From Stegostoma tigrinum (taxonomy: Eukaryota), in the NCBI RefSeq assembly GCF_030684315.1, contig NC_081380.1, positions 29,323,951-29,387,950 on the forward strand: a stretch of DNA of 64,000 nt, in the 5' to 3' direction. Below the pieces are notes generated by a model, which ran no database searches, was not told the origin of the DNA, and was given only the letters and a program-made list of their open reading frames with translations. A program made the translations under genes and the position numbers. Each line of letters begins with the position of its first letter. Position 1 is the first letter of the stretch. Of the stretch, positions 4,708 through 58,645 are shown piece after piece.

Positions 4708-4939
4708 TAATAGGAACTGCCGATGCTGGAGAATCTGAGACAACAAGGTGTAGAGCTGGATGAACACAGCAGGCCAAGCAGCATCAGAGGAGCAGGAAAG
4801 CTGACATTTTGGGTCTGGACCCTTCTTCAGAAATCTGAAGGAACCTGAAGAAGGGTCCGGACCCGAAACATTAGCTTTCCTAGTCCTCTGATGCTGCTTG
4901 GCCTGCTGTGTTCATCCAGCTCTACACCTTGTTATCTCA
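4708..4939. mobile_element. Fold-back PLE-terminus mini-element with inverted HHR motifs
   Basis: Arms 4737-4830 and 4845-4939 are reverse complements; flanks atgacgacagatgg (4678) / ataatgacagatgg (4939) form a degenerate 14-bp TSD. Confidence 0.85.
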
Positions 4940-7337
4940 TAATGACAGATGGATTTGCTTCCAAAATGCCTAGGAAAATTCAAAGACCAACCAGAGAATA
5001 CTTGTTCCCATAAGTAAAATTGATTGAATTTGCAAAGAGCTATTCCTCCAATTAATGGCTTTTTCGATGTTGAATCTGATGTTGATAAACTGACTGAGCT
5101 GGGATTGGGGAAGACATTTTCCAGGTGGGGGATCAGGACTGTGTTGTGGAGGGAAAGCCTTTTCCAGTGGCCATATTTAGTGGGTGGGGGTTGGGTGTAA
5201 CTTATTGTTAGGTGTCCTTTGATAAAGGAGATAGGAAGGGTGCTGTGAAAGGGGGGGTGGGTCTACCAGTGCCAAGGAAGGAATTGTCTGCGGGGGCCAG
5301 GCAGGCCATCTGCTGGAGTGTCCACTGAGGCTAGGAAGGCTATTTGCCTGTGCTTGGTGCGCGTGTGGGGGAAGTGAACAAGGTGACTCCAAGGGAGGTG
5401 GTGGGAGGAGAAAGCTGTCAGAGAAGAAAACTACAAAAGAGGGGATAGTGAGGCCACAGAGGAAGGAGCACAGTTTTAAAGTGAATAAAAGAACATACAG
5501 TTATCTCTGAGTCATGAAAACTTGAATTCATTGTGGAATCTCTCACTTAAGGCTACATATATTCAAGAACATCTATCTGGGGGAAACACTGTCATTTTTA
5601 GACAACTGTGTCAATCGCAATGCTTAAAGCTGAGATTGAGATTGGAATATTTAGGATAGTTGATAACTGCCTGAAGATCTTCCTGCTTTGTGTATACAAA
5701 ATCAAAGTGCATCATGCTATGACCTCATCAGTCTGGAATGTGTGATGGTTTTTTGTGTGTAAAAGTGCATGTCAGTTATTTATTTTTGCTAACTTTTTAA
5801 TTCCTGCTATTTGCAGCTACTTTAAATTCTGTGATGCCAACTAAATGAACACTTGCTTATATGTGACTTTTAAATTTAATGAAAGGTTGATAATTGAGGA
5901 TGTTGATGAATTCTTTCAGTTCTGCAAATGCAATTCCAAAATATTATTGCACTGTCACCTAATAACTAAGTGAGAATGACAAATGAGTTCTTGGAGATCA
6001 AGAAGTAACCTCTTAAGAAAATCTCATAAGAGGCCTTGAAAGAAAAAGTTGACCCTAGCAACAGGCCCAACATCTGAAGGCCCTCAGACTTCACTTTTAG
6101 CTACAGAAAATGAATACTGCACCATTTGCAAATTGGTCTATCTGAATTTCAGGTCCATAATGTCGGTGGTACTTTCCCAGACATAATACATTATGACAAT
6201 CTGTCACTGATTGAGGCCTGTGTTTAATTTAACTTAAACTGAAGTAATAAAATTTCACTTTGCCCCAAATCTTGATGAAAGCTCATAAAAATCAATGAAG
6301 CCCCTAACAATGTTACTTTTGTAGGATTATACCTTAATGAAATAAATCAACCTGTATGCCACATAAGGAGATTTGAATGACTATGAATAGAAAATGGACA
6401 TTCCATTGATTTATTAAGATATATAGTTGCTGGATTTTATGATCAAATATTTAGTCCTTCATTGATGCATGAAATCCACTAAAATAAAAACCCTCAGCAA
6501 ATTATTGTACATGTAAATACCATTCCCATCCACATTGAATAGCACTTAGTTTAACCCATCCAGCTAAGAAGACTGAAATTTCCTCTATGTTCTAATTTTT
6601 GAGTGATTCGTCCAGGGCAGAACGTGCATTCTCTCTACCCTTACCTTACACCCCATAACTGGGAGGTTAGGATTGTTTAATTTATCTATTGAGAAATGCA
6701 GATACAGAGGCCGTTTATGTTGGCTCGACAGAAAATTGAATGAGATATTGTGAAGGGAAGCTTGAGATGTCTTTTTTCCCCAAATTATATCATTTCCATT
6801 CTGAGTCAAAGAAACCACTGAAATTTCTTATATCTGTACCTGGGCATGCTGGATAGCATAAAGGCACCTGTCCAAGGAAATTAAAAAGGAAACTTGCTGC
6901 AATAGTCAATTGATACAGGTCTCATATTATAGCATGTCTAACATATTTGAAGAAATACATTATGGTCCTAATTACCTTCTAGTAAAAATGCAAGCAGCCC
7001 TACAAATCAGTCCCTCCAATAATCAGCATTCCTTTCTTTTTGGCATTATGTAAATTTTCTTCCAATTCCCTGACCATCTCTTCGGCTCTCAAGACTCTAG
7101 CCCCAACCTTACCACTCTTCAACTTCCTTTCCCCTTTTAAAAGCTAGCATAAACTTCACCACTTTTGAGAAACCTTTTACCACCTTTCCTAATACAATCT
7201 CCCTTGGCTTTGTGCCTGTTTCTTTATTTTGCAGTATCAGGCTTTAAGCATCATTAACATCATTACCTGCAGTAGGGACCGTCAAGTAAGTTTAATGGGA
7301 ATGTGAAGAAGAAAGCAATTGGCAGACTATTTTGACT

Positions 7338-7518
7338 GAAAGCTACAAATGCTGGAGATTACAATGGGTCAGGCAGCATCCATGGAGAGACAGCACACCA
7401 ACTTTTTGAGCCTAGGTGAATTTAAGCTTGCTCTCTCTCCATGGATGCTGCCCGGCCCGCTGTGGTCTCCAGTATTTGTTGGTTTCAGTACAGAGTCCAG
7501 CATTTGCAGCAATTTTCC
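7338..7518. mobile_element. Older fold-back PLE-terminus mini-element
   Basis: ggcagcatccatggagaga ... tctctccatggatgctgcc inverted arms; tail tccagcatttgcagc. Confidence 0.65.
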
Positions 7519-8043
7519 AGACTTTTTTTTTTCTTTTTGGGATTGACAGACCTCATGATGCCATTACTACCATTGTGCTGCTCTTATTCAGCACTCTTAC
7601 ATTCAAAGGATTGTTCTTTGTTCAACAGTTTTCCAAATTTCCTTCTAGTCATGCCTTTTCTGTGGTTAAATTTCAGACCTTTAGCTTTTTACTCCCTCAC
7701 TATCCTAAATACGCATCCCTTCATTTTAAAAAAAAATTACATCGCTGTATTTCTGCACAGATATATCATCTAAAATCTACCCAATGAACAATTTGTTGGT
7801 CACTGAATCCAATGTTTTCTCAGTAACAGGTGGAACAGTCCTGTCTCATTTTTCCTTCTTCTGAACTCCATTGGCTTTTCTTTTAGCCCTGACAAGGTTA
7901 ACAAATGAAATATTAACTGGCACTTTCTCTCAATAAATGCCATAATACATGTCCAATATTTTCTCCTATTTGAAAGCATTACTTACAGATCTGTGTGTAA
8001 GTAGGGTTGGGAAATAAGAAGTGTGAAAAAAAACTCAATACAA

Positions 8044-8250
8044 TAAAAACCAGAATATTGTGGATACTGGAGATCTAAAATAAGAGCAAAGTGCTGGAAA
8101 AACCCTGTAGATCTGGCAGCATCGGCAGGCAGAGAAACAGAGTTAACATTCTGAGTCCAATATACCTTTCTTTTGGCTCAAAACATTACCCCTCTTCCTC
8201 TTTCTACAGATTTACTAGCCCTGGGCTTCACCAGCACTTTACTGCTTGTT
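8044..8250. mobile_element. Degenerate fold-back PLE-terminus mini-element
   Basis: aaagtgctggaaaaaccc...ccagcacttt inverted ends; aacattctgagtc / ctcaaaacatt core relics. Confidence 0.5.
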
Positions 8251-8376
8251 CAAAATACCGAACTCTGAAGCATGTTACTGCAAAGCAACAATACACAACT
8301 AAACTTCATTTTTTTGCACTGTAACTTACAGGGAATCATTGTGGGGAGAAGGTAGGTACACTATGGATTATTATTG

Positions 8377-9803: not shown

Positions 9804-10023
9804 ACTGAAATATGATGATCTGTCCCAGGTATATTGTCGGAATCTATTGGCTCCAAGTGGCTGGAGTGTGTTGCAGAATGATGCCAATAGCATGGGTTAC
9901 ACCACACTCTAGCCAACTAAGTCAACAGAGATAAGGGGAACTGCAGATGCTGGAGAATCCAAGATAACAAATTGTGGGGCTGGATGAACACAGCAGGCCC
10001 AGCAGCATCTCAGGAGCACAAAA

Positions 10024-10054
10024 GCTGACGTTTCGGGCCTAGACCCTTCATCAG
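10024..10054 (-). ncRNA. Minimal type-I hammerhead ribozyme motif (intact core)
   Basis: CUGAUGA-A-GGGU(CUAG)GCCC-GAAA-CG-UC-AGC. Confidence 0.7.
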
Positions 10055-10270
10055 AAAAGGGGGATGGGGAGAGGATTCTGAAATAAATAGGGAGAGAGGA
10101 GGAGGCAGACTGAAGGTGGATAGAGGAGAAGATAGGTGGAGAGGAGAGTATGGGTGGGGAGGTAGGGAGGGAATAGGTCAGAACGGGGAGGACGGACAGG
10201 TCAAGAGGGCGGGATGAGGTCAGTAGGTAGGAAATGGAGGTGCAGCTTGAGGTGGGAGGACAGGATAGGT

Positions 10271-10459
10271 GGGAGGAAGAACAGGTTAGGCGGGAGGAAG
10301 AACAGGTTAGGCGGGAGGAAGAACAGGTTAGGCGGGAGGAAGAACAGGTTAGGCGGGAGGAAGAACAGGTTAGGCGGGAGGAAGAACAGGTTAGGCGGGA
10401 GGAAGAACAGGTTAGGCGGGAGGAAGAACAGGTTAGGCGGGAGGAAGAACAGGTTAGGC
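10271..10459. repeat. 9 perfect copies of a 21-bp unit (gggaggaagaacaggttaggc)
   Basis: Directly visible; translates as (GGRKNRL)9. Confidence 0.97.
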
Positions 10460-11603
10460 AGGCGGGGACGAGCTGGGCTGGTTTTGGGATGCAGTGGGGG
10501 GAGGGGAGATTTTGAAGCTGGTGAAATTCACATTGATACCATTGGGCTGCAGGGTTCCCAAGTGGAATATGAGTTGCTGTTCCTGCAACTGACAGGCGGC
10601 ATCATTGTGGCACTGCAGGAGGCCCGGGTTGGACATGTCGTCTAAGGAATGGGAGGGGGAGTTAAAATGGTTCACGACTGGGAGGTGCCATCGTTTACTG
10701 TGAACCGAGTGTAAGTGTTCTCCAAAGTGGTCCCCAAGCCTCCGCTTGGTTTCCCCAATGTAGAGGACGCCACACTGTGTACAACAGATGCAGTATACTA
10801 CATTGGCAGATGTGCAGGTGAACATCTGCTTGATGTGGAAAGTCATCTTAGGGCCTGGGATGGGGGTGAGAGAGGAGGTGTGGGGGTACATGTAGCACTT
10901 CCTGCGGTTGCAGGGGAAGGTGCCGGGTGTGGTGGGGTTGGAGGGCAGTGTGGAGCGGACAAGGGAGTCACGGAGAGAATGGTCTCTCCGGAAGGCAGAC
11001 AAGGGTGGGGATGGAAAAATGGCTTGGGTGGTGAGGTCGGATTGTAGATGGCGGAAGTGTCGGAGGATGATGCTTTGTATCCGGAGGTTGGTGGGGTGGT
11101 ATGTGAGGACAAGGGGGATTCTGTTTTGGCAGTTATTGCGAGGGCGGGGTGTGAAGGAGGAGATGCGGGAAATGCGGGAGACACGGTCGAGGGCATTCCC
11201 GACCACTGCAAGGGGTAAGTTGCGGCCCTTGAAGAACGAGAACATCTGGGATGTGTGCGAGTGGAATCCCTCATCCTGGGAGCAGATGCGGCTGAGGCGA
11301 AGGAATTGGGAATAGGGGATGGGATATTTGCAGGAGGGTGGGTGGGAGGAGGTGTATTCCAGGAAGCTGTGGGAGTCAGTGGGCTTGAAATGGACATCGG
11401 TTTGTTGGTGGTTGCCTGAGATGGAGACAGAAAGGTCCAGGAAGGTGAGGGATGTGTTGGAGATGGTCCAGGTGAACTTGAGGTTGGGGTGGAAGGTGTT
11501 GGTGACATGGATGAACTGTTCGAACTCCTCTTGGGAGCATGAGACGGCGCCGATACACTCATCAATGTAACGGAGGAAGAGGTGGGGTTTTGGGCCAGCG
11601 TAG
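10454..11603 (-). pseudogene. PLE RT/GIY-YIG polyprotein fragment (~380 codons, no internal stop, no N-terminus)
   Basis: The 263-aa ORF extends upstream in frame by hand translation (TYAGPKPHLFLRYIDECIG...); the catalytic YIDD reads YIDE. Confidence 0.85.
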
Positions 11604-13170
11604 GTGCCAGCATTTCCCTCAATTCACTCCTATACCTGCTGTAATAGTTCAATGAGGACTGCCTCCTGGCTGTGCTCCATGTTTGGTGTTCCACAAGCTA
11701 TATAACAGTTTACTTCCCTCTCATAGAGAGGGTGGCATCTATAGTTCCTCATGATCTGTTGTGATTTACCTAAGATTAAAAATGCTCCCCATCCTTAAAA
11801 AGGGCAGACTAGTTTGCAGATACACATTCACCTGCAATACTGAATTTTAGCAAAGCAAACCTGTCTAAAAATGTTTTCTTCCACCTCTCACATGCTCCAT
11901 TGCTGTTATTTAAGTGAAAGCAAGTGGTCTCATTTTTTTTTGTCCAGGCCTAAGTTCAATTGACAGAAAACATAGCTGGGATCCAGATCCTGTACCAGAA
12001 AAGTGACTAGGATATTACTGAGAAGTCAATGTAAAATTTTCAATATTTATTATCCAATAAGACTTGATTAACATGCAAAATATAACTGATCATTCCTCAT
12101 AACTTTAGTCATTGCAATATCACAACAGTAAAATATTCACTTTCATGCAGCATTTCCCATGATAGCTACTACTCGTTAACTGAGCTCTCATTCATAGTAA
12201 ATTCATAGATTATGTTCTGAGTTTCCAATGTGTTTCAGTATGCAATTGCTCTAGGACCACGATTAACACATTCCCATTCAAGTGAAAGCAAGCTGATGAT
12301 CACAAGCATGCTCAAGATAACATATTGGTATTTTACTACATCTCAAAAAAATTGTATAATTAGTCATCTGTGCCTATGAAATCTATTACTATGGGAGGTG
12401 TGGACTTCAACTTATTGATACTGTAGCACAGATATTTGAAACCAAGAGGTGAAGTAGGATAGGAACAATATTCATGATATTTCACCTTGTGGAAAAGTAT
12501 TTGCAGAAACTGAAAACCTGCAAAAACTAAAAATCAAACAGAAAACCAAACAATTGCAGTGGACATTCCTAACCTGAGGTCTTTGCTTGCATTATACAAC
12601 CTGCTCTCTGCTGCCAGTTTGGATCATCATAAAATTTCATTGGTGTTTAACATGAAGTCAAAGAAACAGTGGAGCAGAGGCACAGCTGAAGCTAGCCAAA
12701 CAAAACAGAAATATTTTTCTGGACACCTCCACAGGCAGAAACTGCCCAGTCATCCTTCACAGGCCAGTGATCAGGCACCTCCTGTCACACTGGATGAAGT
12801 ACAGTGGGTAGCTGGGTCTTGTTAAGAAGGGTCACTTCAACCTTGAAAAGCTCCAACTCAAACACTGTCCTTCTCAGTACTCCCACTCAATGAACAGACG
12901 ATTAGATTCAAACAAACGTAATCATACCAACATGTACAGAAATATACAACAGGGATAAATAATTGTTTGCACTTTAGCTGCTGTTTTCAGTGTCTTGTTG
13001 TCATCTTGAAGAATACTTAGTCAGAAGCAAATTAAAAAGTCAATGAGAGTTGAAATGCAACACGGGGTAATGTTGGATGGGATGCATATTATAGTTTGGG
13101 GCTCCTGATGCTCTTTTTAAGTCAGAAGTCACACAGCACCAGGTCATAGTCCAACAAGTTTATGTGAAAT

Positions 13171-13206
13171 CATAAGCTTTCGAAGCATAGCCCCTTCGTC
13201 AGGTGA
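13171..13206 (-). ncRNA. Minimal hammerhead motif of PLE family 2
   Basis: cac-CUGACGA-A-GGGGC(UAU)GCUUC-GAAA-GC-UU-aug; palindromic AAGCUU stem III. Confidence 0.6.
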
Positions 13207-13451
13207 AGTGAGAAAAAACCACACAGAACACAGAATTTATTGGTAAATACATCAAAAGATCATACAAATGGTGTGACTGAAGTGTCAACAGGCCAAATAT
13301 TAAGTCCCTGCAGGTGTTCCAAACTGTTCGACAGTGTGAGTAAAGTATCAACAGCTGAATAACAAGTGAACGGATGACCTATAATTTGATTAAATGAGGC
13401 AGAGAGACAATTGCAAAAAAATTAAAAATGTGCTGGAGACAAACTAGATGA

Positions 13452-15570
13452 GATTAGGCAAGATTTAGGGAGCATAGGAGGGGGAAGGAAACTGCAGGGG
13501 ATGGGCACATTAGAAATGTGGAGCTTATTCAAGGAAAAGCTCCTGTGTGTCCTAGATAAGTATGTACCTGTCAGGCAGGGAGGAAGCTGTAGAGTTCAGG
13601 AGCCGTGGTTTACGAAGGAGGTGGAATCTCTGGTCAAGAGGAAAAAGAAGGCTTATGTTAGGATGAGATGTGAAGGCTCAGTTAGGGCACTTGAGGGCTA
13701 CAGGTAGCCAGGAAGTACCAAAAGAGAGAACTCAGAACAGCCAGGAGGAGACATGAGAAGTTGTTGGCGGATAGGATCAGGGTAAACTCTAAGGCTTTCT
13801 ATAGGTATTTAAGGAATAAAAGAATGGCCCTAATTTTACTCTCGTCAATCAAAGATAGTAGTGGGAAGTTGTGTCTGGAGTCAGAGGAGATAGGGGAAGC
13901 ACTAAATGAATATTTTTCGACAGTATTCACTCTAGAAAATGACAATGTTGTCAAGGAAAATACTGAGATACAGGCTACTAGACTAGGTGGGATTGAGGTT
14001 CACAAGGAAGAGGTATTAGAAATCCTACAGAGTGTGAAGATAGATAAATCACCTGGGCCGGATGGGATTTATCCTAGGATCCTCTGGGAAGCCAGGAAGG
14101 AGATTGCTGAGCCTTTGGCATTGATCTTTAACTCGTCATTGTCTACAGGAATACTCCCAGAAGACTGGAGGATAGCAAATGTGGTTCCCCTGTTCAAGAA
14201 TGGGAGTAGAGACAACCCTGATAATTATAGACCAGTGAGCCTTACTTCAGTTGTTGGTAAAGTGTTGGAAAAGGTTATAAGAGATAGGATTTATAATTAT
14301 CCAGAAAAGAATAATTTGATTAGGGATAGTCAGCTTGGCTATGTGAAGGGTAGGTCGTGCCTCACAAACCTCCTTGAGTTCTTTGAGAAGGTAACCAAAC
14401 AGGTAGATGAGAGTAAACCGGTTGATGTGGTGTACATGGATTTGAGCAAGGCTTTCGATAAGGTTCCCCACAGTAGGGTATTGTACAAAATGGGGAGGAA
14501 TGGAATTGTGGGAGATACAGCAGTTTGGATCGGAAATTGGCTTGCTGAAAGAAGACAGAGGGTGGTAGTTGATGGGAAACGTTCATCCTGGAGACCAGTT
14601 ACTAGTGGTGTACCGCAAGGGTCAGTGTTCGGTCCACTGCTGTTTGTCATTTGTATAAACGACTTGGATGAGGGCGTAGAAGGATGGGTTAGTAAATTTG
14701 CAGACAACACTAAGGTCGGTGGAGTTGTGGATAGTGATGAAGGATGCTGTAGGTTACAGAGAGACATAGACAAGCTGTAGAGCTGGGCTAAAAGGTGGCA
14801 AATAGAGTTTAATGCAGAGTTTAAGTGTGAGGTGATGCACTTTGATGGGAGTAACCGGAAGGCAAAGTACTGGGCTAATGGCAAGATTCTTGGTAGTGTA
14901 GATGAGCAGAGAGATCTCGGTGTCCATGTACACAGATCCTTGAAAGTTGCCACCCAGGTTGACAGGGCTGTTAAGAAGGCATACAGTGTTTTAGCTTTTA
15001 TTAATAAAGGGATCAAGTTCCAGAACCATGAGGTTATGCTGCAGCTGCACTTGGAGTATTGTGTACAGTTCTGGTCACCGCATAATAAGAAGGATGTGGA
15101 AGCTTTGGAAAGGGTGCAGAGGAGATTTACTGGGATGTTGCCTGGTATGGAGGGAAGGTCTTACGAGGAAAGGCTGAGGGATTGGAGGCTGTTTTCATTA
15201 GAGAGAAGAAGGTTAAGAGGTGACTTAATTGAAACATATAAAATAATCAGAGGGTTAGATAGGGTGAATAGGGAGAGCCTTTTTCCTAGGATGGTGACCG
15301 CGAGCACGAGGAGGCATAGCTTTAAATTGAGGGGTGAAAGATATAGGACAGATGTCAGAGGTAGTTTCTTTACTCATAGTAGTAAGGGAATGGCACACTT
15401 TGCCTGCAACAGTAGTAGCTTCGCCAACTTTAAGTACATTTAAGTCATCATTGGATAAGCATATGGACGTACATAGAATAGTGTAGGTTAGATGGGCTTC
15501 AGATTGGTATGAAGGTTGGCACAACATCGAAGGCTGAAGGGCCTGTACTGTGCTGTAAATGTTCTATGTT
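13452..15570 (+). mobile_element. CR1 LINE, 5'-truncated, ORF2 RT pseudogene
   Basis: [34 protein letters not shown]; in-frame stops; tail gttctatgttcta; TSD ctagatga (13444, 15571). Confidence 0.96.
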
Positions 15571-17269
15571 CTAGATGACTGGAATAACATGGCACATACA
15601 AGAGTCACATGCTGAGTGTCTAATCAAACTAATAAGTAATCCAAAACTGTACAACATAATTAAGATAGACAGATTGTAACATTTTATCAAGGTGATGGTG
15701 TCAAAACAGGTCAGCAAGGAAGATTTTACAGATGCAGAACAGTATGCTGTAGTCATCGGTAGCAAAACATGCACCCAAGATCACGGCTGAGGCTGTCTCC
15801 ATGGGTACAGAACTCAGCTATCAGTTTCTGCTCAGCAATTCCGTGTTGTTGTGTATCTCGAACGCTGCCTTGGAGGACAATTACCCGATGACTGGAGGCG
15901 AAATGTCCTTGACTGCTGAAGTGTTCCCCAACTGGGAGGGAGCATTACTGTCTGGCAGGTACTCACTGTGCCCATTCATCTTTTGTCATAGCGTCTGCAT
16001 GGTCTCGCCAATATACCAGGCCTCAGGGCATCCTTGCCTGCAGCATATGAAACAGACAATGTTGGCCAAGTCACAAGTAACTGCAGCGTGTGTGGTGGGT
16101 GCTGTTCCCACATGTGATGGTAGTGTCCATGTTGATGATCTGACATGTCTTGCAGAGGTTACTGTGGCAGGGTTGTGTAGCATTGTGTTCATGTTGTCCT
16201 GAAGGCTGGGTAGTTTGCTGTGAATGATGGTCCATTTAAGGTTTGGCAGCTGTTTGAAAGTGAGAAATGGAGGCGTAGGGATGATCTTGATGAGATGTTC
16301 ATCAATGACACATCAAAGGCCACAAAGAACATGGCGTAGTCTCTCTTTTTAAGATAAAGAACAAGGATTTGAAGCTTGCATTTGATTAACTGGCTGACTT
16401 ATAAAAACTGGGAATACTTACAGAATTATACACAGGAAGCCTCAGGCTTACTTTGAAGGTGTATATTAAAACCAGAAACATCCATTGTGAAATACCACAG
16501 TTTACAATTTTCTTCACCCAGTCACGATGAAGACTATTTGTTCTGAACCAGGACAAAAACTTCTGTTGGCAAGTTGTTATGAGAAGGAAGGCAACTCTCA
16601 ATCCTCCCTAGGTCAAAAAAATTCAAACAAGAGATTGTTGCATCATCTTTCCTCTTGCATTTAGGTACAGTTTGAAAGAAAGATAATGCCAAAAATAAGT
16701 CAGTGTGAAGTGGCAGAATATGAAACGTATTCGCTTTTGAGTTTGAGGAGAGATATAATATTGACTACCATTTTGCTCATGTCCAGTACATTTATTTGCC
16801 ATCTGAAACATACAGTCCTAGATAGCAAGAGCCTTACCTCACTAAGTGTGTTAGTCTGCTTCAAATAGAATGGAAAGGTGCATAATGCATGGATAAACAA
16901 CATGCCCAGTATCCAATATAGATCATAAAGAGGCCTGTTGTTATAACCTGGGGTCACACTATCAAATAGATTAGTAGTTAGGAAATTTGGGCTCATCTCT
17001 GAATGAAAGACACTCTGGTTGCTTTCAGGAGTGTCCAGTACACCTAAAACTCAAAAGAATATCCAAGTCAGAAGCTAAAATACTCCACCTTAACCCTTGT
17101 ACAGGGAAAATGACTGGTCATATGAGTGTCAAAGACTATGAAACGAAAGACTCACATGCATTTTGTACTCTTAATAACCACCACCAAATGACTCAAAAGA
17201 ACTTTAGTTAAATGTAAAAATTTTTGATATGTAGTAACTGCTCTAATATAACAAATGCAGCAAGCCATG

Positions 17270-19405: not shown

Positions 19406-19529
19406 AGAGATAATGGGAACTGCAGATGCTGGAGATTCCAAGATAATAAAATGTGAGGCTGGATGAACACAGCAGGCCAAGCAGCATCTCAGGAGCACAA
19501 AAGCTGACGTTTCGGGCCTAGACCCTTCA
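19406..19529 (-). mobile_element. Young PLE 3' terminus truncated inside the HHR core
   Basis: Near-identical to the terminus at 22817; perfect 13-bp TSD tcccagcagtatc (19393, 19530). Confidence 0.9.
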
Positions 19530-19635
19530 TCCCAGCAGTATCTTGCTTTTGCCTTCCTCATGGCGATCTTACATTAGGCAAAGACTTTCCCCTCTTAGAA
19601 TATGAAAGAAAAGAAATTAAACTAAAAGGAAATTG

Positions 19636-19867
19636 AGAGATAACAAGGTGCAGAGCTGGATGAACACAGCAGGTCAAGCAGCATCAGAGGAGCAGGAAAG
19701 CTGACATTTTGGGCCTCGAACCTTCTTCAGAAAAAAATTCTGAAGGAGGATCTAGGCCCAAAATGTCAGCTTTCCTGCTCTTCTGATGCTGCTTGGCCTG
19801 CTGTGTTCATCCAGCTCTGCACCTTGTTATCTCAGATTCTCCAGCATCTGCAGCTCCTGCTATCTCT
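19636..19867. mobile_element. Fold-back PLE-terminus mini-element
   Basis: Arms 19637-19732 and 19738-19833 inverted around an A-rich spacer; TSD aactaaaaggaaa / aactaagaggaaa. Confidence 0.88.
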
Positions 19868-20567: not shown

Positions 20568-21982
20568 GAGTGTTAAATTTCTCCATTGTAATAAAAACTA
20601 TGGAAAATTTGTTCTTTAAAAAAATTCTTAAGACATGTTTAGATTGATCTTAATCAAACTTGTTTGCCCCAATTATTTGTCACTCACTATTACATTTTAA
20701 TTAAAAGTGAATGCTTCCTTGGGTTTTTACTTTCTGATTTGCTCTGCTAGAAGACTTCAATGAGATTGGTTCATAACATCATTATTGCTACTTAGAGATT
20801 CCCTTGACCTAACACCAGTTTTAAACTGGTAGGGAGAGAAACGCAAGACACAGTAATGACATATCTTTGTGGGCAAATTTTTTTAAGGCCAGTTATGAAC
20901 ACAAACATCAGTTGCTAACCAGAATGTGCATGCACATTGTTATCTCTGCTATCAGGAGTCAAAGAGTGGAGCTGGATGAACACAGCAGGCTAAGCAGCAT
21001 CTTAGGAGGACAATAGAACATAGAACATAGAACAGTACAGCACAGAACAGGCCCTTCAGCCCACAATGTTGTGCCGACCATTGATCCTCATGTATGCACC
21101 CTCAAATTTCTGTGACCATATACATGTCCAGCAGTCTCTTAAATGACCCCAATGACCTTGCTTCCACAACTGCTGCTGGCAACGCATTCCATGCTCTCAC
21201 AACTCTCTGCGTAAAGAACCTGCCTCTGACATCCCCTCTATACTTTCCACCAACCAGCTTAAAACTATGACCCCTCGTGCTAGCCATTTCTGCCCTGGGA
21301 AATAGTCTCTGGCTATCAACTCTATCTATGCCTCTCATTATCTTGTATACCTCAATTAGGTCCCCTCTCCTCCTCCTTTTCTCCAATGAAAAGAGACCGA
21401 GCTCAGTCAACCTCTCTTCATAAGATAAGCCCTCCAGTCCAGGCAGCATCCTGGTAAACCTCCTCTGAACCCTCTCCAAAGCATCCACATCTTTCCTATA
21501 ATAGGGCGCCCAGAACTGGACGCAGTATTCCAAGTGCGGTCTAACCAAAGTTTTATAAAGCTGCAACAAGATCTCACGACTCTTAAACTCAATCCCCCTG
21601 TTAATGAAAGCCAAAACACCATATGCTTTCTTAACAACCCTGTCCACTTGGGTGGCCATTCTAAGGGATCTATGTATCTGCACACCAAGATCCCTCTGGG
21701 CCTAGGCCTTTCTGACAACTTTTGTTTTCCTTCCTTTATCGCTGAGGAAAGTAGACACAGAAAATAGATGACAGAATAGGTTACTTAGCCTAGCGAGCCT
21801 GCTCTGTCATTCAAGTTGATCGTGGCTGATGGTCCAACTCTGTCTTGATCTATTTGGCATGCACAGGTAGGCTGTGTGTGTGTTTTTATTTGATTGAGAC
21901 AGATCTAAACAGGTCATAAGAATTTTTTTTAAAAGAAGAAACTGTCCATCATTTTTATTACAATGGAGAAATTTGACACCCC
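20568..21982. mobile_element. Putative non-autonomous DNA transposon relic with ~90-bp TIRs, containing nested PLE and CR1 insertions
   Basis: gtgttaaatttctccattgtaataaaaa...aatcaaa (20570-20658) is the diverged reverse complement of 21889-21980. Confidence 0.6.
21013..21697 (-). mobile_element. Young CR1 3' fragment inserted into a PLE terminus
   Basis: Stop-free 193-aa ORF (LVRPHLEYCVQFW, RGDLIEVYK, FTQRVVRAWNALP); (catagaa)n tail; PLE terminus sequence on both sides (20957-21012, 21698-21715). Confidence 0.93.
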
Positions 21983-22035: not shown

Positions 22036-22130
22036 TTCTGAAGAAGGGTCCAGACCCGAAATGTCAGCTTTCCAGCTCCTCTGATGCTAATTGGCCTGCT
22101 ATGTTCATTCAGCTCTACATCTTGTTATAT
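22036..22130 (+). mobile_element. Solo PLE terminus with HHR motif
   Basis: ctgaagaagggtccagacccgaaatgtcagc at 22038; TSD ctagatcat (22024, 22131). Confidence 0.8.
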
Positions 22131-22335
22131 CTAGATCATTTTGGTGCTGTGCAAAGTTTTTTCTTAAAATGGAGTAGTCAGTTTGTCACTGGATGAAAAG
22201 GGATCCTTTCCAGCAAAAAACCATAGCATCATGTGAATATGAGAACAAAGCAAATGAACGTTTTGCCCATTATTGAGCTTGCCCATTCCAGCATCTTGCG
22301 CTGATTGGATCTGCAACTGGGCATCAAATTGGTCA

Positions 22336-22607
22336 TGATAATAAAATGTGAGGCTGGATGAACACAGCAGGCCAAGCAGCATCTCAGGAGCACAAAAGCT
22401 GACGTTTCAGGCCTAGGCCCTTCATCAGAGAGCACAAAAGCTGACGTTTCGGGCCTAGACCCTTCATCAGAGAGCACCTCTCTGATGAAGGGTCTAGGCC
22501 CGAAACGTCAGCTTTTGTGCTCCTGAGATGCTGCTTGGCCTGCTGTGTTCATCCAGCCTCACATTTTATTATCTTGGATTCTCCAGCATCTGCAGTTCCC
22601 ACTATCT
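22336..22607. mobile_element. Fold-back PLE mini-element with three HHR motifs (two tandem on -, one on +)
   Basis: HHRs at 22398-22428(-), 22440-22470(-), 22482-22512(+); perfect 14-bp TSD catcaaattggtca (22322, 22608). Confidence 0.92.
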
Positions 22608-22816
22608 CATCAAATTGGTCAGCTACTTTCCTGCCTTTCACTAGAATGGTGTAAAAATGACGTGGAAACATTAAGCATATTTTTAAAAGGATTAGATTTT
22701 CTTCCTACAAATTCTGCCCACTTGCAATCACATACTTTCAAATAGCTGCATCCCACTATTTTTTTTCCAACCTTCAGGAGGTCCATTTACCGCCTACAAG
22801 TACAAGTGAAAACCTG

Positions 22817-23637
22817 AGATAATGGGAACTGCAGATGCTGGAGAATTCCAAGATAATAAAATGTGAGGCTGGATGAACACAGCAGGCCAAGCAGCATCTC
22901 AGGAGCACAAAAGCTGACGTTTCGGGCCTAGACCCTTCATCAGAGAGGGGGATGGGGAGAGGGAACTGGAATGAATAGGGAGAGAGGGGGAGGCGGACCG
23001 AAGATGGAGAGTAAAGAAGATAGGTGGAGAGAGTATAGGTGGGGAGGTAGGGAGGGGATAGGTCAGTCCAGGGAAGACGGACAGGTCAAGGAGGTGGGAT
23101 GAGGCTAGTAGGTAGATGGGGGTGCGGCTTGGGGTGGGAGGAAGGGATGGGTGAGAGGAAGAACCGGTTAGGGAGGCAGAGACAGGTTGGACTGGTTTTG
23201 GGATGCAGTGGGTGGGGGGGGAAGAGCTGGGCTGGTTGTGTTACACAACCAGCCCAGCTCTTCCCCCTCCCGCCCCACCCGCTGCATCCAAAAACCAGTC
23301 CAACCTGTCTCTGCCTCCCTAACCGGTTCTTCCTCTCACCCATCCCTTCCTCCCACCCCAAGCCGCACCCCCATCTACCTACTAGCCTCATCCCACCTCC
23401 TTGACCTGTCCGTCTTCCCTGGACTGACCTATCCCCTCCCTACCTCCCCACCTATACTCTCTCCACCTATCTTCTTTACTCTCCATCTTCGGTCCGCCTC
23501 CCCCTCTCTCCCTATTCATTCCAGTTCCCTCTCCCCATCCCCCTCTCTGATGAAGGGTCTAGGCCCAAAACGTCAGCTTTTGTGCTCCTGAGATGCTGCT
23601 GGGCCTGCTGTGTTCATCCAGCCTCACATTTTATTAT
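22817..23637. mobile_element. ~820-bp near-perfect palindrome of PLE 3' region
   Basis: Centre ggttgtgt-t-acacaacc at 23242; mirror ORFs 23086-23391(-) and 23099-23404(+); perfect 14-bp TSD caagtgaaaacctg (22803, 23638). Confidence 0.95.
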
Positions 23638-24312
23638 CAAGTGAAAACCTGTCCTGGAAAACCTGTAGGTATTGCACTAATTATACAGCTGTTCCAACAG
23701 TTTATTTGGCTACACTGACAATCTACTTTTGTGATTCAATTGGATGCATTAGTTGCAAATTGATACTCCAGTCCCAATAAAATGACAAATCATAAATGAG
23801 CACCTGCATTGTGCTAAAAGCTGGTTCCATTATACATTGCATGAATCACTCATTTAAACAACCTGTAAAAGTCTGTGTGAGAATTTGCTTTGTGCCAGCA
23901 GTTTTCGCAATAGTTCAGATATTCTCACCTCTTAAATGCCCTTAAAACAATCGCCAGCTTAACTGAGAGTTGAACTACTTAAAGCAAAGTTATTGCAATG
24001 TAAAACACTACAAATGTAAACAAAACAAATATTTCTGACAAACACCCGAATCTTGTGGTGCATAACAAGTGGCTTGAAAAATAAACGTGAATGCAGAAAA
24101 CTCAGCTATGTTAAAAGGGAAACATCCCAGTACTGGATCAGCAAATCCACTGCAATCATTGGATCTATTGTGAAAAACCAAATAACAAGGAAAAATGACA
24201 GCTCGGTGTAGCATCTGCCAAAAAAGAACAAAAGACCAAGAAAAACATATGTGAAGTCACAGATCACGTATCTAAACAGTTGGTGAAATGCTATGGGTAC
24301 TCACTAGGTGAC

Positions 24313-39402: not shown

Positions 39403-39758
39403 GAACATAGAACATAGAACATAGGAAAGTACAGCACAGTACAGGCCCGTCGGCCCACGATGTTGTGCCTTGGATTAATCCTAATCCAAAAACAAAATAA
39501 CCTAACCTACATTCCCCTTAATTCACTGCTGTTCATGTGTTTGTCCAGCAGTCGCTTAAATGTCACCGATGACTCTGCTACCACTGGCAAAGTGTTCCAT
39601 GCGCTCACAACTCTCTGGGTGAAGAGCCTCCCTCTGACATCTCCTCTATACCTTCCTTCTAACACCTTGAAACTATGACCCCTCCTGGCAGTCAATCCTG
39701 CCCTGGGGAAAAGTCTCTGGCTATCGACTCTATCCATGCCTCTCATTGCCTTGTACAC
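39403..39758 (-). mobile_element. CR1 3' end
   Basis: DVRGRLFTQRVVSAWNTLP; (aacatag)n tail. Confidence 0.92.
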
Positions 39759-44104: not shown

Positions 44105-44490
44105 AGTCACATGGCACAGAAGAGGGCCTTCTGCCTGCCAAAGCTGCACTTTCAAAAAATTACTCTAAATCTACGTTCATCCCACTTTCCAGCACTTGGC
44201 TCATAGCCATGAATGCAATGACATTTCAACTGCACATCCACACATTTTTTTTTTAAAAGAGGTGGTGAGTGTTCCCCCTCTACCTTGTTCTGAGGAAGGG
44301 TTACCAGACCTGAAACATTAACTCTGATTTCTCTTCACAGAAGCCACCAGACCTGCCGAGCTTTTCCAGCAATTTGTTTTAGTCCTCCCTCTACTACATG
44401 CGCAGGCAGTGCACTCCAGATTCCCACCATCCTCTAGGTGAAAAATACTTTCCTCAATTCCCCTCTGAACTTCCTGTCTTAATATCAATA
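44105..44490 (-). mobile_element. Old CR1 3' fragment containing a PLE terminus with HHR relic (44288-44381, +)
   Basis: QEVQRGIEESIFHLED(G) ORF; inserted ctgaggaagggttaccagacctgaaacattaac. Confidence 0.6.
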
Positions 44491-45687: not shown

Positions 45688-45737
<50 letters not shown>

Positions 45738-45755
45738 GAGAGAGAGAGAGAGGAG
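45555..45755. repeat. Polypurine tract ending in a (GA)n microsatellite
   Basis: (ga)n run at ~45692-45751. Confidence 0.92.
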
Positions 45756-47709
45756 ATTCCCCTATCCTTCATTAAATATAGATCACTTGTGTATTCCTAC
45801 ATCAGACTTCATTCTATTTCTTGCTGAATAAACTGCAGACAAAAGACATACAGATTGGAGTTCAAAGCCTTTTAATAATGAGAATAAATTGCCTCAGTCT
45901 GGGTGGTATTTATTGATAATTCCATGAGCTTGGTTCAGTCTGGTCAGGGGACAGTACAGCCACCTTAATCAGTGTTTTCCATTTTAAAAAATATGGCACC
46001 CAAAGTATTAAAATCAGATGTTGAAATTTGTAAATTGATGGTCCATTTTTACCACCAGCATGACAATATTAAAATATAGGTTCGATCATAGTAAAACATG
46101 CACTTGATGAGGCAGAGAACATCACGATGGACTTAATTGACAAAATGTTTTAATATATTGACTTTTATAAAGTAATCCATGTTAAAGAGTTATGGCTGCA
46201 GTAAATGGATTCCACAGATAGTGATGCTAACCTTTACAATTGAGTAGCTAAGAACTGCAGATCCTGTTTGAAACAAAAACAGAAAATGTTGAAAACACAA
46301 AGATCAGTAAGAACATGTGGAGAGAGAAAATACATGTAATGTTTCAGGTCAATTATCCTTTGCTTCTATATCTTTTTTCGCTGACACTTGTTGAATGAGG
46401 TGCTTAAGTAATTCATGACTGCATTTGCACTACAAATCGCCAAAATGTCTTTCATCCAATGTCAAAACGTTATTTTTTAAATCTGACATTCTCACTTCTC
46501 TGTTGCAGAGATAGTCCCTGACTCCAGCATTACAGAATTTGGATGTAATTAATCACATTGGACTGATACTGCAATCAGAGTGGACTCAAGTTACAACTGC
46601 ATATTGGCAAGACTATGAATTTGTTTCAGAAAGTCAATGAATGTTAGATTTGAATAGAGAAGATCAATATTTTGAGCCATAAGACAAGCTTTTCATGGTT
46701 AATGCACAGTTAATAGTCTAGCTGCAATTCATATGACACTTCAAGATCTAGTCAAATATAACCATTTTCATCCAAGAGTTATTTGGCCTTCCTCCCAGTT
46801 TCTGTTCTGTCATTATCGTCCACGTGGCCACTGCTCCACCTCTGTTACAGACTTGATGGGTTGAATGGCGTCCTTAGGAACTGTAAAATTCTATGATTCT
46901 ATTTTATTTTCAACTCCAAATCTAGCGGTTCCACTTACTTGGATGTATTTACTGTGCCAGATTTCTCTGCTTGCCTATCAACATTTCGGCTGCAGCCTCT
47001 GAATTTTTTTGCACATCCCAAATAAACTTTGCCCAAGTTCTTGCTTGGAATATTCGCTGCCAAAACCCCTGCACTGTTTGGTTTATTATTTAGGGTTTAA
47101 TCTATTCACTAGACCTTCCCTTTCAAGACTTTCCCTTTCAAGAATTTTCTCTCCCGTTCAACTACAAAGATTTCTTCATACAGATCAGTTGATTTTTTTT
47201 GCTGCTGTCTCTGGTGTACTGGTTTTCAACCTGTTTCCTCTCCCACAGGTATACTATGAAATCTAATGAGACATACTTGTTTCTGTGGGGTTTCTGAATT
47301 TCTGGAGGCCTCAGGAGTAGGATGGTCCTTTTAGGAATCTGAAGTGAACGGATGGAAAATTTCATGCCTTTCTTTAAATCTAGCTTGGTGATAAAAAGTT
47401 CTGATAATACAGTTAAGCTCTTCTTTTACATTGGAATAAAACCATGGGTTAAGTGAAAGAAAAATCATTTATTTCCTTAGGATCACAATGTCCTGGAGCT
47501 GTTTTAGGGGGTATGCATTATTTAATAGCCCTGAAAGACAGGAACAAAATATCGCCAGCTCCACATGTTATTCACATGTTATCCCACTCTTAATAGAACT
47601 CAAAGAAGTGGAAAGAAATGGGGTCAAGTCTATAATGAAAGCAGTCAGCTGTAGCATTCTTGATGTCTCCTATCAGTCAAGAAAAAGCACAAGAACTGAG
47701 AGAGATGGG

Positions 47710-47848
47710 AGATAATGGGAACTGCAGATGCTGAAGAATCTGAGACAACAAAGTGTGGAGCTGGACGAACACAGCAGGCCAAGCAGCATCTGCTCCTAAG
47801 ATGCTACTTGGCCTGCTGTCTTCATCCAGCTCCACGCTCGGTTGTCCC
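47710..47848. mobile_element. Fold-back PLE mini-element with centre (both HHRs) deleted
   Basis: cagcaggccaagcagcatct-gctcct-aagatgctacttggcctgctg. Confidence 0.8.
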
Positions 47849-47961
47849 TAAAACCGAGACAGAATTTGTTTGTCTCCTGCCCTTTATTCACCTGGACATA
47901 GTGTAATGATCAATAAAGAAAAATACAAATACAACACTTCTGATACAACAATCAAGAAAAA

Positions 47962-50522: not shown

Positions 50523-50622
50523 AACAAAAACAGAAGTTGCTGGAAAAGCTCAGCAGGTCTGGCAGCATCGAAGATGAAAAAGAAATCAGTTAACATTTCG
50601 GGTCAGGTGACCCTTCCTCAGT
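50523..50622 (-). mobile_element. Older PLE terminus with HHR motif
   Basis: CUGAGGA-A-GGGUC(ACCU)GACCC-GAAAUGUU; TSD aatatacaat (50513, 50623). Confidence 0.75.
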
Positions 50623-51811: not shown

Positions 51812-51940
51812 GAGAGATAGGAGGAACTGCAGATACTGGAGAATCTGAGATAACAAGGTGTAGAGCTGGATGAACACAGCAGGCCAAGCAGCAGAGGAGC
51901 AGGAAAGCTGATGTTTTGGGCCTAGACCCTTCTTCAGAAA
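51812..51940 (-). mobile_element. Solo PLE terminus (mutated HHR)
   Basis: Matches the 4708/19636 subfamily. Confidence 0.85.
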
Positions 51941-52469
51941 AAATGAGAGTTCTGTTTATCATCTGGATCAGCTGATAAAATGTTTATTCTAAGCCATACA
52001 TAGACAATAGTAGAGTAGAATTTTGCATAGCATGTGTCTGATCCAGAAAAGCATAATATTAAATTCAGATATTTGAGTGTGTTGATTATTTCTCAATGGT
52101 CTCATTTCCAAACTGTCAAGTAACCTATCAAATGTATAAGACATCATCTTCTACAACCAAGGCAGCAATTGTCAGTGGTTGATTTAACACACAGAACTGA
52201 AACCCAGCCTTTTTTTCTGCTCTTCACCATCTGCACAACTATTTGACTGAGGACTGAGATCACTATTTTGTAGTCAGTGGAAAATCTGACCACTTATTCC
52301 TTCTAACACACCAACCAAAACTCTGACTGAGATCAGCGATCTCAACAAAGATCAAGGATGGAGGCTTAAGCATTTGCGGGCTCTGTGTTGACCAGTCATG
52401 CACTTTCCAACCTAACAAAATGAGTAAAATTACAAATAAATAAACAACACATCCCACTTCCTACAGACA

Positions 52470-53566
52470 AAGAGGGTGGCCATGGGTACCTGCATGGGCC
52501 CAAGCTATGCCTGCCTCTTTGTAGGTTACGTGGAACAGTCCCTCTTCCGCACCTACACAGGCCCCAAACCCCACCTCTTCCTTGGTACACCGATGGCTAT
52601 ATCAGCGCCGCCTCTTGCTCCCCCAAGGAGCTCGAACAGTTCATCCACCTCACCAACGCCTTCTACCCCAACCTCAAGTTCACCTGGGCCATCTCTAACA
52701 CATCCCTCACCTTCCTGGACCTCTCAGTCTCCATCTCAGGTAACCAGCTAGAAACTGATGTCCATTTCAAGCCCACTGGCTCCCACAGCTACCTAGAATA
52801 CACCTCCTCCCACCCATCCTCCTGCAAAAATTCAATCCCCTATTCCCAATTCCTCCGCTGCCGCCGCATCTGCTCCCAGGATGAGGCATTCCATTCCCGC
52901 ACATCCCAGATGTCCACGTTCTTCAAGGACCGCAACTTTCCCCCCACAGTGGTCGAGAACGCCCTTGACCGCGTCTCCCACATTCTCATCAACACATCCC
53001 TCACACCCCGCCACAACCGGCCCCAGAGGATCCCCCTCGTTCTTACATACCACCCCACCAACCTCCAGATACAACGCATCATCCTTCGACACTTCTGCCA
53101 TCACTTCACAAGCTTCAAAATCTCCCCTTCCCCTACTGCATCCCAAAACCAGCCCAGCTTGTTCCCCTCCTCTCACTGCATCCCAAAACCAGCCCACCCT
53201 GTCTCCACTTCCCTAACCTGTTCTTCTTCACCCATCCCTTCCAATTACCTGAAGCCGCACCTCCATTTCCTACCTACCACCTCATCTCGCCTCGTTGACC
53301 TGTCCATTTTCCCTGGACTGACCTATCCCCTCCCTACCTCCTCACCTATACTCTCCTCTCTACCTATCTTCTTTTCTCTCCATCTTCAGTCCACCTCCCC
53401 CTCTCTCCCTATTTATTCCTGTTCTCTCTCCCCATACCCCTCTCTGATGAAGGGTCTACGCCCGAAACGTCAGCTTTTGTGCTCGAGATGCTGCTTGGCC
53501 TGTTGTGTTCATCCTGCTCCACACTTTGTTATCTTGGATTCTCCAGCATCTGCAGTTCCCATTATC
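52470..53566 (+). mobile_element. PLE family 1 fragment: RT motifs, GIY-YIG deleted, intact 3' terminus
   Basis: AMGTCMGPSYACLFVGYVE; junction RHFCH|HFTSFKIS at ~53100; intact HHR at 53444-53474. Confidence 0.93.
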
Positions 53567-53659
53567 GCATTATAACTTACTGCCTCATTTTCAAATACTA
53601 TGAATAAATTATGATTTTACGTAAAAGGGGAAATATTTGCCAAATATTCTTTGGAGAAA

Positions 53660-53840
53660 GCAAGAACTGCAGATGCTAGAGTCAGAGACAATGCAGTGTG
53701 GAGATGGAAGAACACAGCAGGCCAGGCAGCATGAGAGGCGCAGGAAAGGGACACTTGGCCCTGACCTAAAACGTCAACTTTCCTGCTCCTCTGATGCTGC
53801 CTGGCCTGCTGTGTTCCTCCAGTTTCACATTGTGTTATCT
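53660..53840. mobile_element. Fold-back PLE mini-element (centre collapsed)
   Basis: gaacacagcaggccaggcagcat / atgctgcctggcctgctgtgttc; TSD-like tgccaaatattctttg / tgccaaacatactttg. Confidence 0.8.
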
Positions 53841-56800: not shown

Positions 56801-57535
56801 GTGTAGGGGCTAGAGCACTGTACTGAATCAGACTGATAGGGGTTCCTTGGGTATATGCCCAACTGAAGCTTTCAGTTTTTCTCCTCCTAAGGTTTATCAG
56901 ACAACATGACTGTGTTTATTCACAGTGACACAATCAGCAAACATAAACATAATGACAAAAGCCCGAATTGCTGGAGCAGAACGTGGGCTGTATGAAACAA
57001 GGACTTTCAATTTTCTTTTTAAAAGAAGTTCATTTCCTATTGAGAAAGAGCGTGTTCAGCTGGCTATACTCAGAAGCAGACAGTGAAGTAATATGAAATG
57101 AGGAAATTCAATTAAATTGAAGCAGTTTGCAGATAACTGAACACTAACCAACCACACCTACTTCTGTTCCAAGTAAGTTCATCTGTCATTTTGAAATGTC
57201 ATTTTTTTTTACATTGACTGCTGCACTGGGGATTCTTTTTCCACAGAAATACAGTGAACATGAATACTACACAATCTTGGATATGCACCCAATTATGATT
57301 ACTTTTGTTCCTACAATTCAGCTCCTCGCCTAGCAGTTTTCCTGGGCATCACTCCCAACCAAGAAACAGATCTATTCAGAGGCGCTTGTGGGGAGCTGGT
57401 TAATGTGACGTTGGTTAATCCTTTCCCATGTAGAGACAGCTTGTTAAATTATATTTTTGTTTCCATTTAAGTGTAACATATTTCCTTTAGGTTAAAATAA
57501 AAAAAGCAAAGACTGCAACAAGTACTTACAGCTAG

Positions 57536-58645
57536 TGATAACAAAGTGTGGAGCTGGATGAACACAGCAGGCCAAGCAGCATCCTAGGAGCACAAAAGCT
57601 GACATTTCAGGCCTAGACCCTTCATCAGAAAAGGGGGATGGGGAGAGGGTTCTGAAATAAATAGGGAGAGGGGGGGAAGCAGATCGAAGATGGGTAAAGG
57701 ACAAGATAGGTGGAGAGGAGAAAGACAAGTTAAAGGGGCGGGGATGGAGCCAGTAGAGGGGAGTGTAGGTGGGGAGGTAGGGAGGAGATAGGTCAGTCCA
57801 GGGAGGACAGACAGGTCAAGGGGGCGGGATGAAGTTAGTGGGTAGGAAATGGAGGTGCCGCTTGAGGTGGGAGAAGGGGATAGATGAGAGGAAGAAAAAG
57901 TTAGGGAGGCGGGGACAAGCTGGGCTGGTTTTGGGATGAAGTAGGGGGAGGGGAGATTTTGAAGCTTGTTAAATCCACATTGATACCATTGTGCTACAGA
58001 GTTCCCAAGCGGAATATGCGTTGCTGCTCCTGCAACCTTCGGGTAGCATCATTGTGGCACTGCAGGAGGCCCAGGATGGACATATCATCTAAAGAATGGG
58101 AGGGGGAGTTGAAATGGTTCGCGACTGGGGGGTGCAGTTGTTTATTGTGAACTGAGTGTAGGTGTTCTGCAAAGTGGTCCCCAAGCCGCCGCTTGGTTTC
58201 CCCAATGTAGAGGAAGCCACACCGGGTACAGTATACCACATTGGCAGATGTGCAGGTGAACCTCTGCTTAATATGGAAAGTCATCTTGGGGCCTGGGATA
58301 GGGGTGAGGGAGGTGGTGTGGGGGCAAGTGTAGCACTTCCTGTGGTTGCAGCGGAAGGTGCCGGGTGTGGTGGGTTTGGAGGGGAGTGTGGAGCGGACAA
58401 GGGAGTCACAGAAAGAGTGGTCTCTCCAGAAGGCAGACAAGGGTGGGGATGGTAAAATGTCTTTGGTGGTGGGGTCGGATTGTAGATGGTGGAAGTGTCG
58501 GAAGATGATGCGTTGAATCCGGAGGTTGGTGGAGTGGTACGAGAGGACGATGAGGATTCTCTTTTGGCGGTTATTGTGGGAACGGGGCGTGAGGGATGAG
58601 TTGCGGGAAATGCTGGAGACACGGTCAAGGGTGTTCTCAACCACT
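57536..58645 (-). mobile_element. PLE family 1 fragment (GIY-YIG + 3' terminus)
   Basis: 216-aa ORF: CNHRKCYTCPH, NVVYCTRCGFLYIGETKRRL; HHR variant at 57598-57628. Confidence 0.94.

Follow-up and report, generated by a model that had tools for sequence, protein, structure and literature searches.

Minimal hammerhead ribozymes (HHRs) in the pseudo-long terminal repeats (pseudo-LTRs) of metazoan Penelope-like elements (PLEs) were described in 2014 by Cervera and De la Pena (PMC4209133), who reported no activity for the monomers and slow, low activity for the dimers. In PAc, a Poseidon PLE of Anolis carolinensis (Frangieh 2024, PMC11167929), both target strands are cut and extended in vitro, and cleavage by the HHR is protein-assisted and dispensable for insertion. 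Here we describe a 64,000-nucleotide (nt) stretch of the genome of Stegostoma tigrinum (NC_081380.1, positions 29,323,951 to 29,387,950; hereafter the window), in which a Neptune-like PLE carries such ribozymes at its termini. The reading that we favour as the likeliest is that these are minimal type-I HHRs of a high-copy Penelope element whose dispersed copies decay neutrally, and most of whose short insertions would stem from an uncleaved, capped RNA template, the inverted ones by double priming. Beyond the known motif, the copies suggest a genomic footprint of uncut, capped templates and of priming on both strands.

The shark motifs resemble the HHRs of PMC4209133, as far as that report sets them out, in their core boxes, the extra base between positions 9 and 10.1, the G10.1-C11.1 pair and the palindromic 15.2-16.2 segment, and also in their pseudo-LTR location and their occurrence mostly as solitary truncated copies, with some pairs on opposite strands. 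The 2-bp stem I of family 1 is similar to the D. virilis variant described there, unlike the 4-5 bp Schistosoma type. The motifs are known minimal type-I hammerheads of PLE pseudo-LTRs, and the motif itself is not new. To search for them we used a strict descriptor (CUGANGA, stem II of at least 4 bp, GAAA, a palindromic 15.2/16.2 segment and UH) and a looser one demanding the core and stem II only. All positions are given relative to C3 = 0, with the predicted cut between +27 and +28. The strict descriptor matched the window seven times (C3 at 10054, 13202, 22428, 22470, 22482, 22943 and 53444), against a mean of 0.0 and a maximum of 0 in 30 dinucleotide shuffles of the window, and the looser one 12 times against a mean of 0.2 and a maximum of 1. 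This search had been proposed as a check in the original prediction, an earlier reading of the letters alone, and every one of the 17 places listed there does carry the motif, with the catalytic boxes CUGANGA, GAAA and UH in type-I order and, as had also been claimed, an extra base after A9 (A or U in the parsed copies of all six groups). Minus-strand copies were numbered there about 30 below C3, so that 10024, 22440 and 22913 are C3 10054, 22470 and 22943, and 13171, 50589 and 57598 are C3 13202, 50621 and 57628. Further termini are broken within the core or 3' of it (19531, 53748, about 24423, 47709-47835, 21016 and 1107-1168). Of the 96 matches up to E 5 in an Rfam scan none was to a hammerhead family, and those on the inverted repeats were to miRNA-like hairpins only.

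In a sample of 140 unselected 10-kb stretches (1.4 Mb of the 3.2-Gb genome) the strict descriptor matched 65 times, against 0, 0 and 0 in three shuffles, which extrapolates to about 150,000 strict copies genome-wide. The same sample holds 288 family-1 termini, or about 660,000 in the genome by extrapolation. A single 30-nt core sequence is present in 90,316 exact copies in the genome (45,079 + 45,237), its reversed control in none. Set against about 9,000 copies in X. tropicalis and about 4,000 in the coelacanth, which PMC4209133 obtained with a different descriptor, this is roughly ten times the largest minimal-HHR count given in the abstract, results and discussion of that report, which name no chondrichthyan. 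Clustering of 238 relaxed matches gave five real groups, chance pairs and 38 singletons.

The three PLE open reading frame (ORF) remnants of the window that have a visible terminus all lead into the motif on the same strand (10493-11605 to C3 10054, 52535-53245 to C3 53444, and 57940-58698 to C3 57628). The first is a 5'-truncated ORF (10454..11623, minus strand) with the C-terminal part of the reverse transcriptase (RT), a Cys-linker remnant and GIY-YIG; it is 82% identical to the single 1065-amino acid (aa) ORF of a long natural copy (locus L101) and runs towards a family-1 terminus with an intact HHR and a 35-nt tail (9928..10054, minus). A 21-bp unit repeated 9.5 times with 98% matches lies in the 3' untranslated region of this copy (10260-10459). 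The second is a deleted remnant followed by an intact HHR and tail (52535..53570, plus), and the third is followed by an HHR with two CpG changes and no tail (57537..58698, minus). The L101 protein, P0001, matched Pfam RVT_1 (E 3.6e-5) and, C-terminally, GIY-YIG (E 0.04), both short of the Pfam cut-offs, and inspection of its translation revealed DKG, a C-x4-C-x2-C linker separating RT and endonuclease, and CCHH within the endonuclease. A PDB sequence search with P0001 gave 0 matches. Among the matches listed, 120 homologues carry PF00078/PF26215/PF28514, some of them also PF01541, and the best named relative is a Chiloscyllium punctatum protein with 77% identity. A linker of this type (CX2-5CxxC) marks Neptune/Nematis PLEs according to PMC8557442, and on this feature we class the element, one of the endonuclease-containing (EN+) Penelope-like elements, as Neptune-like.

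At loci that retain the ORF 5' end (L121-L150) the ORF follows the HHR terminus, and its ATG lies about 165 nt beyond C3. The order along the element is HHR, 3' end sites near +92 and +127, ATG, and one ORF with RT and GIY-YIG. The HHR terminus ahead of the ORF places the ribozyme in a pseudo-LTR, as in PMC4209133. The 3' ends of copies are bimodal at about +92 and +127, bounding a 35-nt tail, and its boundaries correspond to the two RT start sites reported in PMC11167929. The same short TTATCT repeat precedes both end sites (seen at 22482-22608) and is a candidate recognition signal for the start of reverse transcription. In the other families PLE protein homology lies upstream of the motif in 5 of 27 copies of family 3, 3 of 11 of family 4 and 3 of 4 of family 5; none of the four family-2 copies, including that at 13202, had such upstream homology, so that the link of family 2 to a PLE is only presumptive.

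Where the copies end at their 5' side bears on whether the template had been cut. We counted ends, as BLAST ends, in 104 young copies that share at least 92% identity with a natural reference; two more, truncated by the ends of their stretches, had been dropped from the 106. Of the copies at risk, 46 of 78 ended between +9 and -9, compared with 12 of 92 in an equal window around the cut site (+37 to +19; p 2e-10) and 2 of 32 from -10 to -28. At the cut site itself (+27 to +29) just one of the 104 young copies ended. A single family-1b insertion in the window (22037..22132, plus) begins just before C3 22038; it has no tail and is flanked by an exact 9-nt repeat. In families 1b and 3, too, the match to long copies breaks off at about -4/-5, with 28 of 40 copies of 1b and 24 of 28 of family 3 classed as short (a few of these 1b rows still show the upstream tract); families 4 and 5 lack this boundary (1 of 13 short). 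Families 4 and 5 also keep long upstream sequence, for example at locus L197.

The base before -4 is itself skewed. Among 8,457 copies genome-wide with a non-C base there, it is G in 5,699, and hand counts of the 100 rows first on contig C1 gave a G:A ratio of 69:5, against 31:26 one base further out. Long 1b and family-3 copies have A at -4, which we take to be an initiator-like context, that of 1a presumably being a pyrimidine-initiator-like one. Copying of a 5' cap yields an extra G, a point for which a literature search brought up no source. Together, the pile-up before C3, the near-absence of ends at the cut site and the excess of G suggest an uncleaved, capped RNA template, and a capped RNA start about 4 nt before the ribozyme core seems probable from these copy ends. 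An internal promoter within the pseudo-LTR has been reported for D. virilis Penelope (PMC2377424). Two other origins of the pattern were considered and rejected. The -4 peak does not mark an older subfamily with other upstream sequence, since it holds at 92% identity or more and the flanks are unrelated; nor is the G at -5 a subfamily variant, as it was found in 1 of 61 long copies and in 2 of 24 G loci.

Several observations weigh against a capped, uncut template. The start site and the cap are read from genomic copies, and the 5'-end peak is broad, from -7 to +8. The G may be templated: of 24 G cases among 30 loci, 15 lie at inverted junctions whose other arm could have provided it, two are long copies with a G variant and one is a direct duplication, and in two of the six single cases that are left the target repeat itself ends in this G (the second read by eye). 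Of another set of 30 loci, those carrying the ORF 5' end, at least 11 reach over 280 nt upstream of C3 in the direct orientation, so there must also be templates longer than one unit, whether from tandem read-through, from circles or from jumps. RNAs that were cleaved, moreover, might simply go uninserted and be invisible in the genome.

The alternative that fares best, though we think it unlikely, is the route put forward in PMC4209133, in which dimeric HHRs cut tandem transcripts, the monomer is ligated into a circle and the RT crosses the junction. It is supported by the at least 11 loci that exceed one unit, and ligation would remove the ends at +28. The pile-up at -4 would then reflect RT stalling or release at a cDNA hairpin rather than an RNA 5' end; pairing between the core and the cleavage-site segment could indeed fold the cDNA just past C3. 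Yet this hairpin is equal or stronger in families 4 and 5, where 1 of 13 copies is short, and weaker in family 3, where 24 of 28 are. The 69:5 skew at exactly one position is left without a reason, and the anole RNA-seq data, as presented in PMC11167929, show no read ends at the cut site.

Two further peculiarities were seen at the 5' junctions. At some of these the element's first 8-60 nt are directly duplicated (window 22384-22477, and loci L238 and L250), as if the RT had realigned and recopied at the end of its template in a telomerase-like manner, which yields natural tandem HHRs. Runs of T are found at 1b junctions (e.g. window 19731-19739) where long copies have three T, which suggests slippage of the RT at the template end.

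The second footprint concerns copies inserted head to head. In the unselected stretches we found 57 such pairs, which account for 114 of the 288 termini (40%). With the threshold for a tail set at +104, one arm carries the tail and the other does not in 51 of the 57 (p 3e-10); three are tail/tail and three have none on either arm. A shared flank of at least 8 nt (median 14) surrounds 19 of 21 young pairs, against 5 of 300 mismatched controls, and one target-site duplication usually encloses the whole inverted unit. The window holds six such insertions. The family-1a insertion at 22334..22608 has a 14-nt target-site duplication; its minus arm, without a tail, bears a direct tandem of two HHRs spaced at 42 nt (C3 22470 and 22428), its plus arm a single HHR with a tail (C3 22482). 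That at 22815..23638, also with a 14-nt duplication, has arms of about 400 nt, with an intact, tailed HHR (C3 22943, minus) facing an untailed one with G12A (C3 23547, plus). Of family 1b are 4713..4939, where C3 4830 (minus) has G12A and a tail, C3 4845 (plus) has no tail and the shared flank is 9 nt, and 19628..19866, whose HHRs are decayed (C3 19730, minus, without a tail; 19740, plus, with one). At 47709..47835 the arms, one tailed and one not, end 3' of the HHR, and in the old insertion at 53664..53840 the plus arm holds only the 3' half of the HHR.

The lengths and alleles of the arms tell how such units may arise. Of the 51 tail/no-tail pairs, 21 have their longer arm on the untailed side and 15 on the tailed side, and in 15 the arms are equal; the differences reach about 770 nt. 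In 54 young pairs drawn from all loci, beyond the unselected ones, the arms were discordant at 27 of 483 polymorphic sites, where 166 would be expected for random copies, and differed at 181 of 12,992 other sites. The simplest reading is that two primings took place, each on its own nicked strand and from its own start site, usually with one RNA as the source of both; this would fit the extension of both strands and the dimer predicted for PAc. That a single cDNA primes itself or folds back, as put forward by Arkhipova 2013 (PMC3846280), is in our judgement even less likely than passage through a circle. The near-identity of the arms (27 of 483 sites discordant) and the often palindromic junctions agree with it, yet fold-back of the tailed first strand should never leave the tailed arm shorter; the longer untailed arms therefore escape this explanation, and fold-back from the untailed strand cannot create a tail. 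In the L253 pair, in addition, the arms differ at 3 of 4 subfamily sites.

These insertions share with EN+ PLEs of the Neptune clade (Craig 2021, PMC8557442; PMC3846280) the CX2-5CxxC linker, the inverted 5'-truncated copy, a 30-40 bp tail at one end and the target-site duplication around the whole unit. Where those papers explain the inverted units by self-priming or endonuclease resolution, the arm lengths and alleles presented here favour two primings. The element is like PAc in having two RT start sites that bound a tail downstream of the HHR, in the use of both target strands and in a template apparently unprocessed by the HHR. It differs in its Neptune-type Cys linker and in the position of the ATG, which in PAc lies in the HHR, and also from what is reported for PAc in that each start site is used once per inverted insertion (51 of 57) and in the 5'-end pile-up with its G excess, neither of which is mentioned in the abstract, results and discussion of PMC11167929. 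The titles and abstracts listed in literature searches that did not extend to subscription journals dealt neither with PLE hammerheads of sharks nor with an accumulation of 5' ends ahead of an HHR nor with priming from one start per arm. PLE-derived, non-coding, HHR-bearing units are also known as non-LTR retrozymes (bioRxiv 10.64898/2026.07.22.740005), a study in which one chondrichthyan was sampled for tandem retrozymes. Unlike those, the copies here are dispersed, single or inverted, and not in tandem arrays; among the seven tandem repeats of the window there is one direct duplication of 42 nt (2.3 copies).

What has been conserved in the ribozyme was examined in 175 of 194 candidate copies that could be parsed structurally (19 skipped), in six related groups. 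The scan accepted copies only if their core was nearly intact and their stem II paired, which partly presupposes the conservation of the core and the pairing of stem II; stem I and 15.2-16.2 were free of that requirement. In stem II the first pair (10.1-11.1) is G-C or its CpG-decay form G.U in all six groups, and across families 10.2-11.2 is G-C or U-A, 10.3-11.3 is G-C, A-U, U.G or U-A, and 10.4-11.4 is U.G, U-A, G-C or A-U. Pair 15.2-16.2 is C-G, or CpG decay products of it, in families 1a, 1b, 3, 4 and 5, and G-C in 4 of 4 family-2 copies; there is no helix III, and this palindromic segment would permit a dimer. In stem I, which has 2 bp in family 1 and at least 3 bp in families 2-5 and in which both sides change from family to family, 2.1-1.1 is U-A, C-G or A-U and 2.2-1.2 is C-G, U.G, U-A or A-U. 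N7 is free to vary across families. The stems thus covary between families, as a descriptive pattern in six related groups.

The covariation proposed in the original prediction accordingly holds between families, with both-sided changes at six pairs, and fails for most of the variants listed within a family. GGGU/GCCC and GGGU/ACCC are not compensatory, because U.G against U-A at 10.4-11.4 changes one side only, and the stem II at 13202 is that of a decayed copy, whose family pairs better elsewhere. The AAGCUU given for stem III of that family-2 HHR (13172..13202, minus) is palindromic, yet the actual stem is the 4-nt AGCU, A14 and N17 having been wrongly included. The stem I of about 2 bp is supported for family 1, families 2-5 having at least 3 bp. 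The loop-II palindrome was considered as a conserved dimer signal and discarded, as it is lost in many 1b loops and in family-3 loops.

Within family 1 the copies decay as neutral sequence would. In 42 copies picked only by their flanks, changes are seen at 9 of 420 non-CpG core sites and at 33 of 1932 downstream ones (p 0.54), and G12, which lies within a CpG, is changed in 7 of 42. Since the copies diverge neutrally and G12 sits in a CpG, the natural G12A and most other variants represent CpG decay. This applies to the G12A noted earlier at 23547; the same change occurs at 4830, 19730 and 51937, and together with A9G at 19740. Selection presumably acted on master elements, not on the dispersed copies.

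The capacity of these motifs to cleave was assessed by folding with a nearest-neighbour model, which has no tertiary contacts or Mg2+ and thus limits how far its energies can support our reading. The predicted occupancy was 0.00 for stem I and about zero for the active fold, in line with the earlier doubt about monomer activity, and the core pairs with the cleavage-site segment in the predicted fold. At 22482-22511, bases 0 to +5 are complementary to +24 to +29, forming a putative 'off' hairpin, and the 12-mer of stem II is nearly palindromic, which favours an inactive intermolecular duplex. An explicit active dimer came to -5.5 kcal/mol, compared with -38.0 for the inactive duplex and -11.4 for each monomer, and the natural tandem 22428/22470 to -3.1 when active and -47.0 when inactive. 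When three inverted insertions were folded, transcripts of either strand buried the motif in long hairpins. The predicted folds match the published monomer inactivity, low dimer activity and protein-assisted cleavage. In family 4 (L197, near 8380, reverse strand) stem I could, by eye, extend across an internal loop.

The window had been described as seeded with self-cleavage sites on both strands, and motifs do lie on both strands; the predicted folds, by contrast, lock the core, and inverted pairs bury it. That dispersed copies are working sites which cut host transcripts is accordingly very improbable: despite their numbers (about 150,000 strict copies by extrapolation, 90,316 exact copies of one core) and a palindromic stem III that permits pairing in trans in principle, the core is unconserved in copies, the inactive forms are far lower in predicted energy (-38.0 against -5.5 kcal/mol for the dimer, -47.0 against -3.1 for the tandem), 114 of 288 termini belong to inverted pairs, which pair with their own antisense, and the published minimal HHRs show no activity as monomers and are slow when dimeric (PMC4209133).

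On the reading that we prefer, with an uncut template and double priming, transcripts would carry a cap and begin about 4 nt ahead of the ribozyme core. The element protein, likely a dimer, would nick the two target strands about 13-15 nt apart and prime a cDNA from each of the two start sites, usually with a single RNA as the source of both. Both cDNAs would run toward the RNA 5' end and then be joined, giving the tail/no-tail inverted insertions. The ribozyme would be kept by selection only in master elements, would be folded 'off' unless the protein helps, may cut a minority of RNAs or act at another stage, and would not set the template's 5' end. A more specific version, which we offer tentatively, is that among several hundred thousand insertions one dimer primes both strands on one RNA, once per RT start, that about half of the cDNAs run off at the capped -4 end, and that the HHR serves as an off-by-default switch, for example for cap removal or circle closure after protein binding. 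Such a young, very-high-copy family provides a large genomic read-out on the role of the PLE hammerhead and on the origin of inverted pseudo-LTRs with a one-sided tail, and it offers exact positions for testing (start -4, cut +28, RT starts +92 and +127).

Other copies and repeats complete the window. A single short insertion with a tail and a 13-nt target-site duplication is broken inside the core at +2 (19407..19531, minus), and a short family-1b copy with G12A and a tail has its C3 at 51937 (51814..51938, minus). Family-3 HHRs lie at 44290..44321 (plus; decayed, with a 5-bp stem II and a 3-bp stem I) and at 50590..50621 (minus). An old, divergent PLE endonuclease-region fragment was found at 15926-16303 (minus; 32% identity, E 6e-10), with no adjoining HHR terminus seen. 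Of 18 window ORFs searched against Pfam, the PLE fragments gave no match, and the one that matched (RVT_1, E 7e-26, for 13695-14777) belongs to an RT fragment of a CR1-like long interspersed nuclear element (LINE) at 13410-15560 (plus). Short 3'-end fragments related to a CR1-like LINE lie near 3377-3611, 21008-21350 and 39402-39758, and a run of about 18 G is situated at 4689-4707, between the tail end of an insertion and the target repeat.

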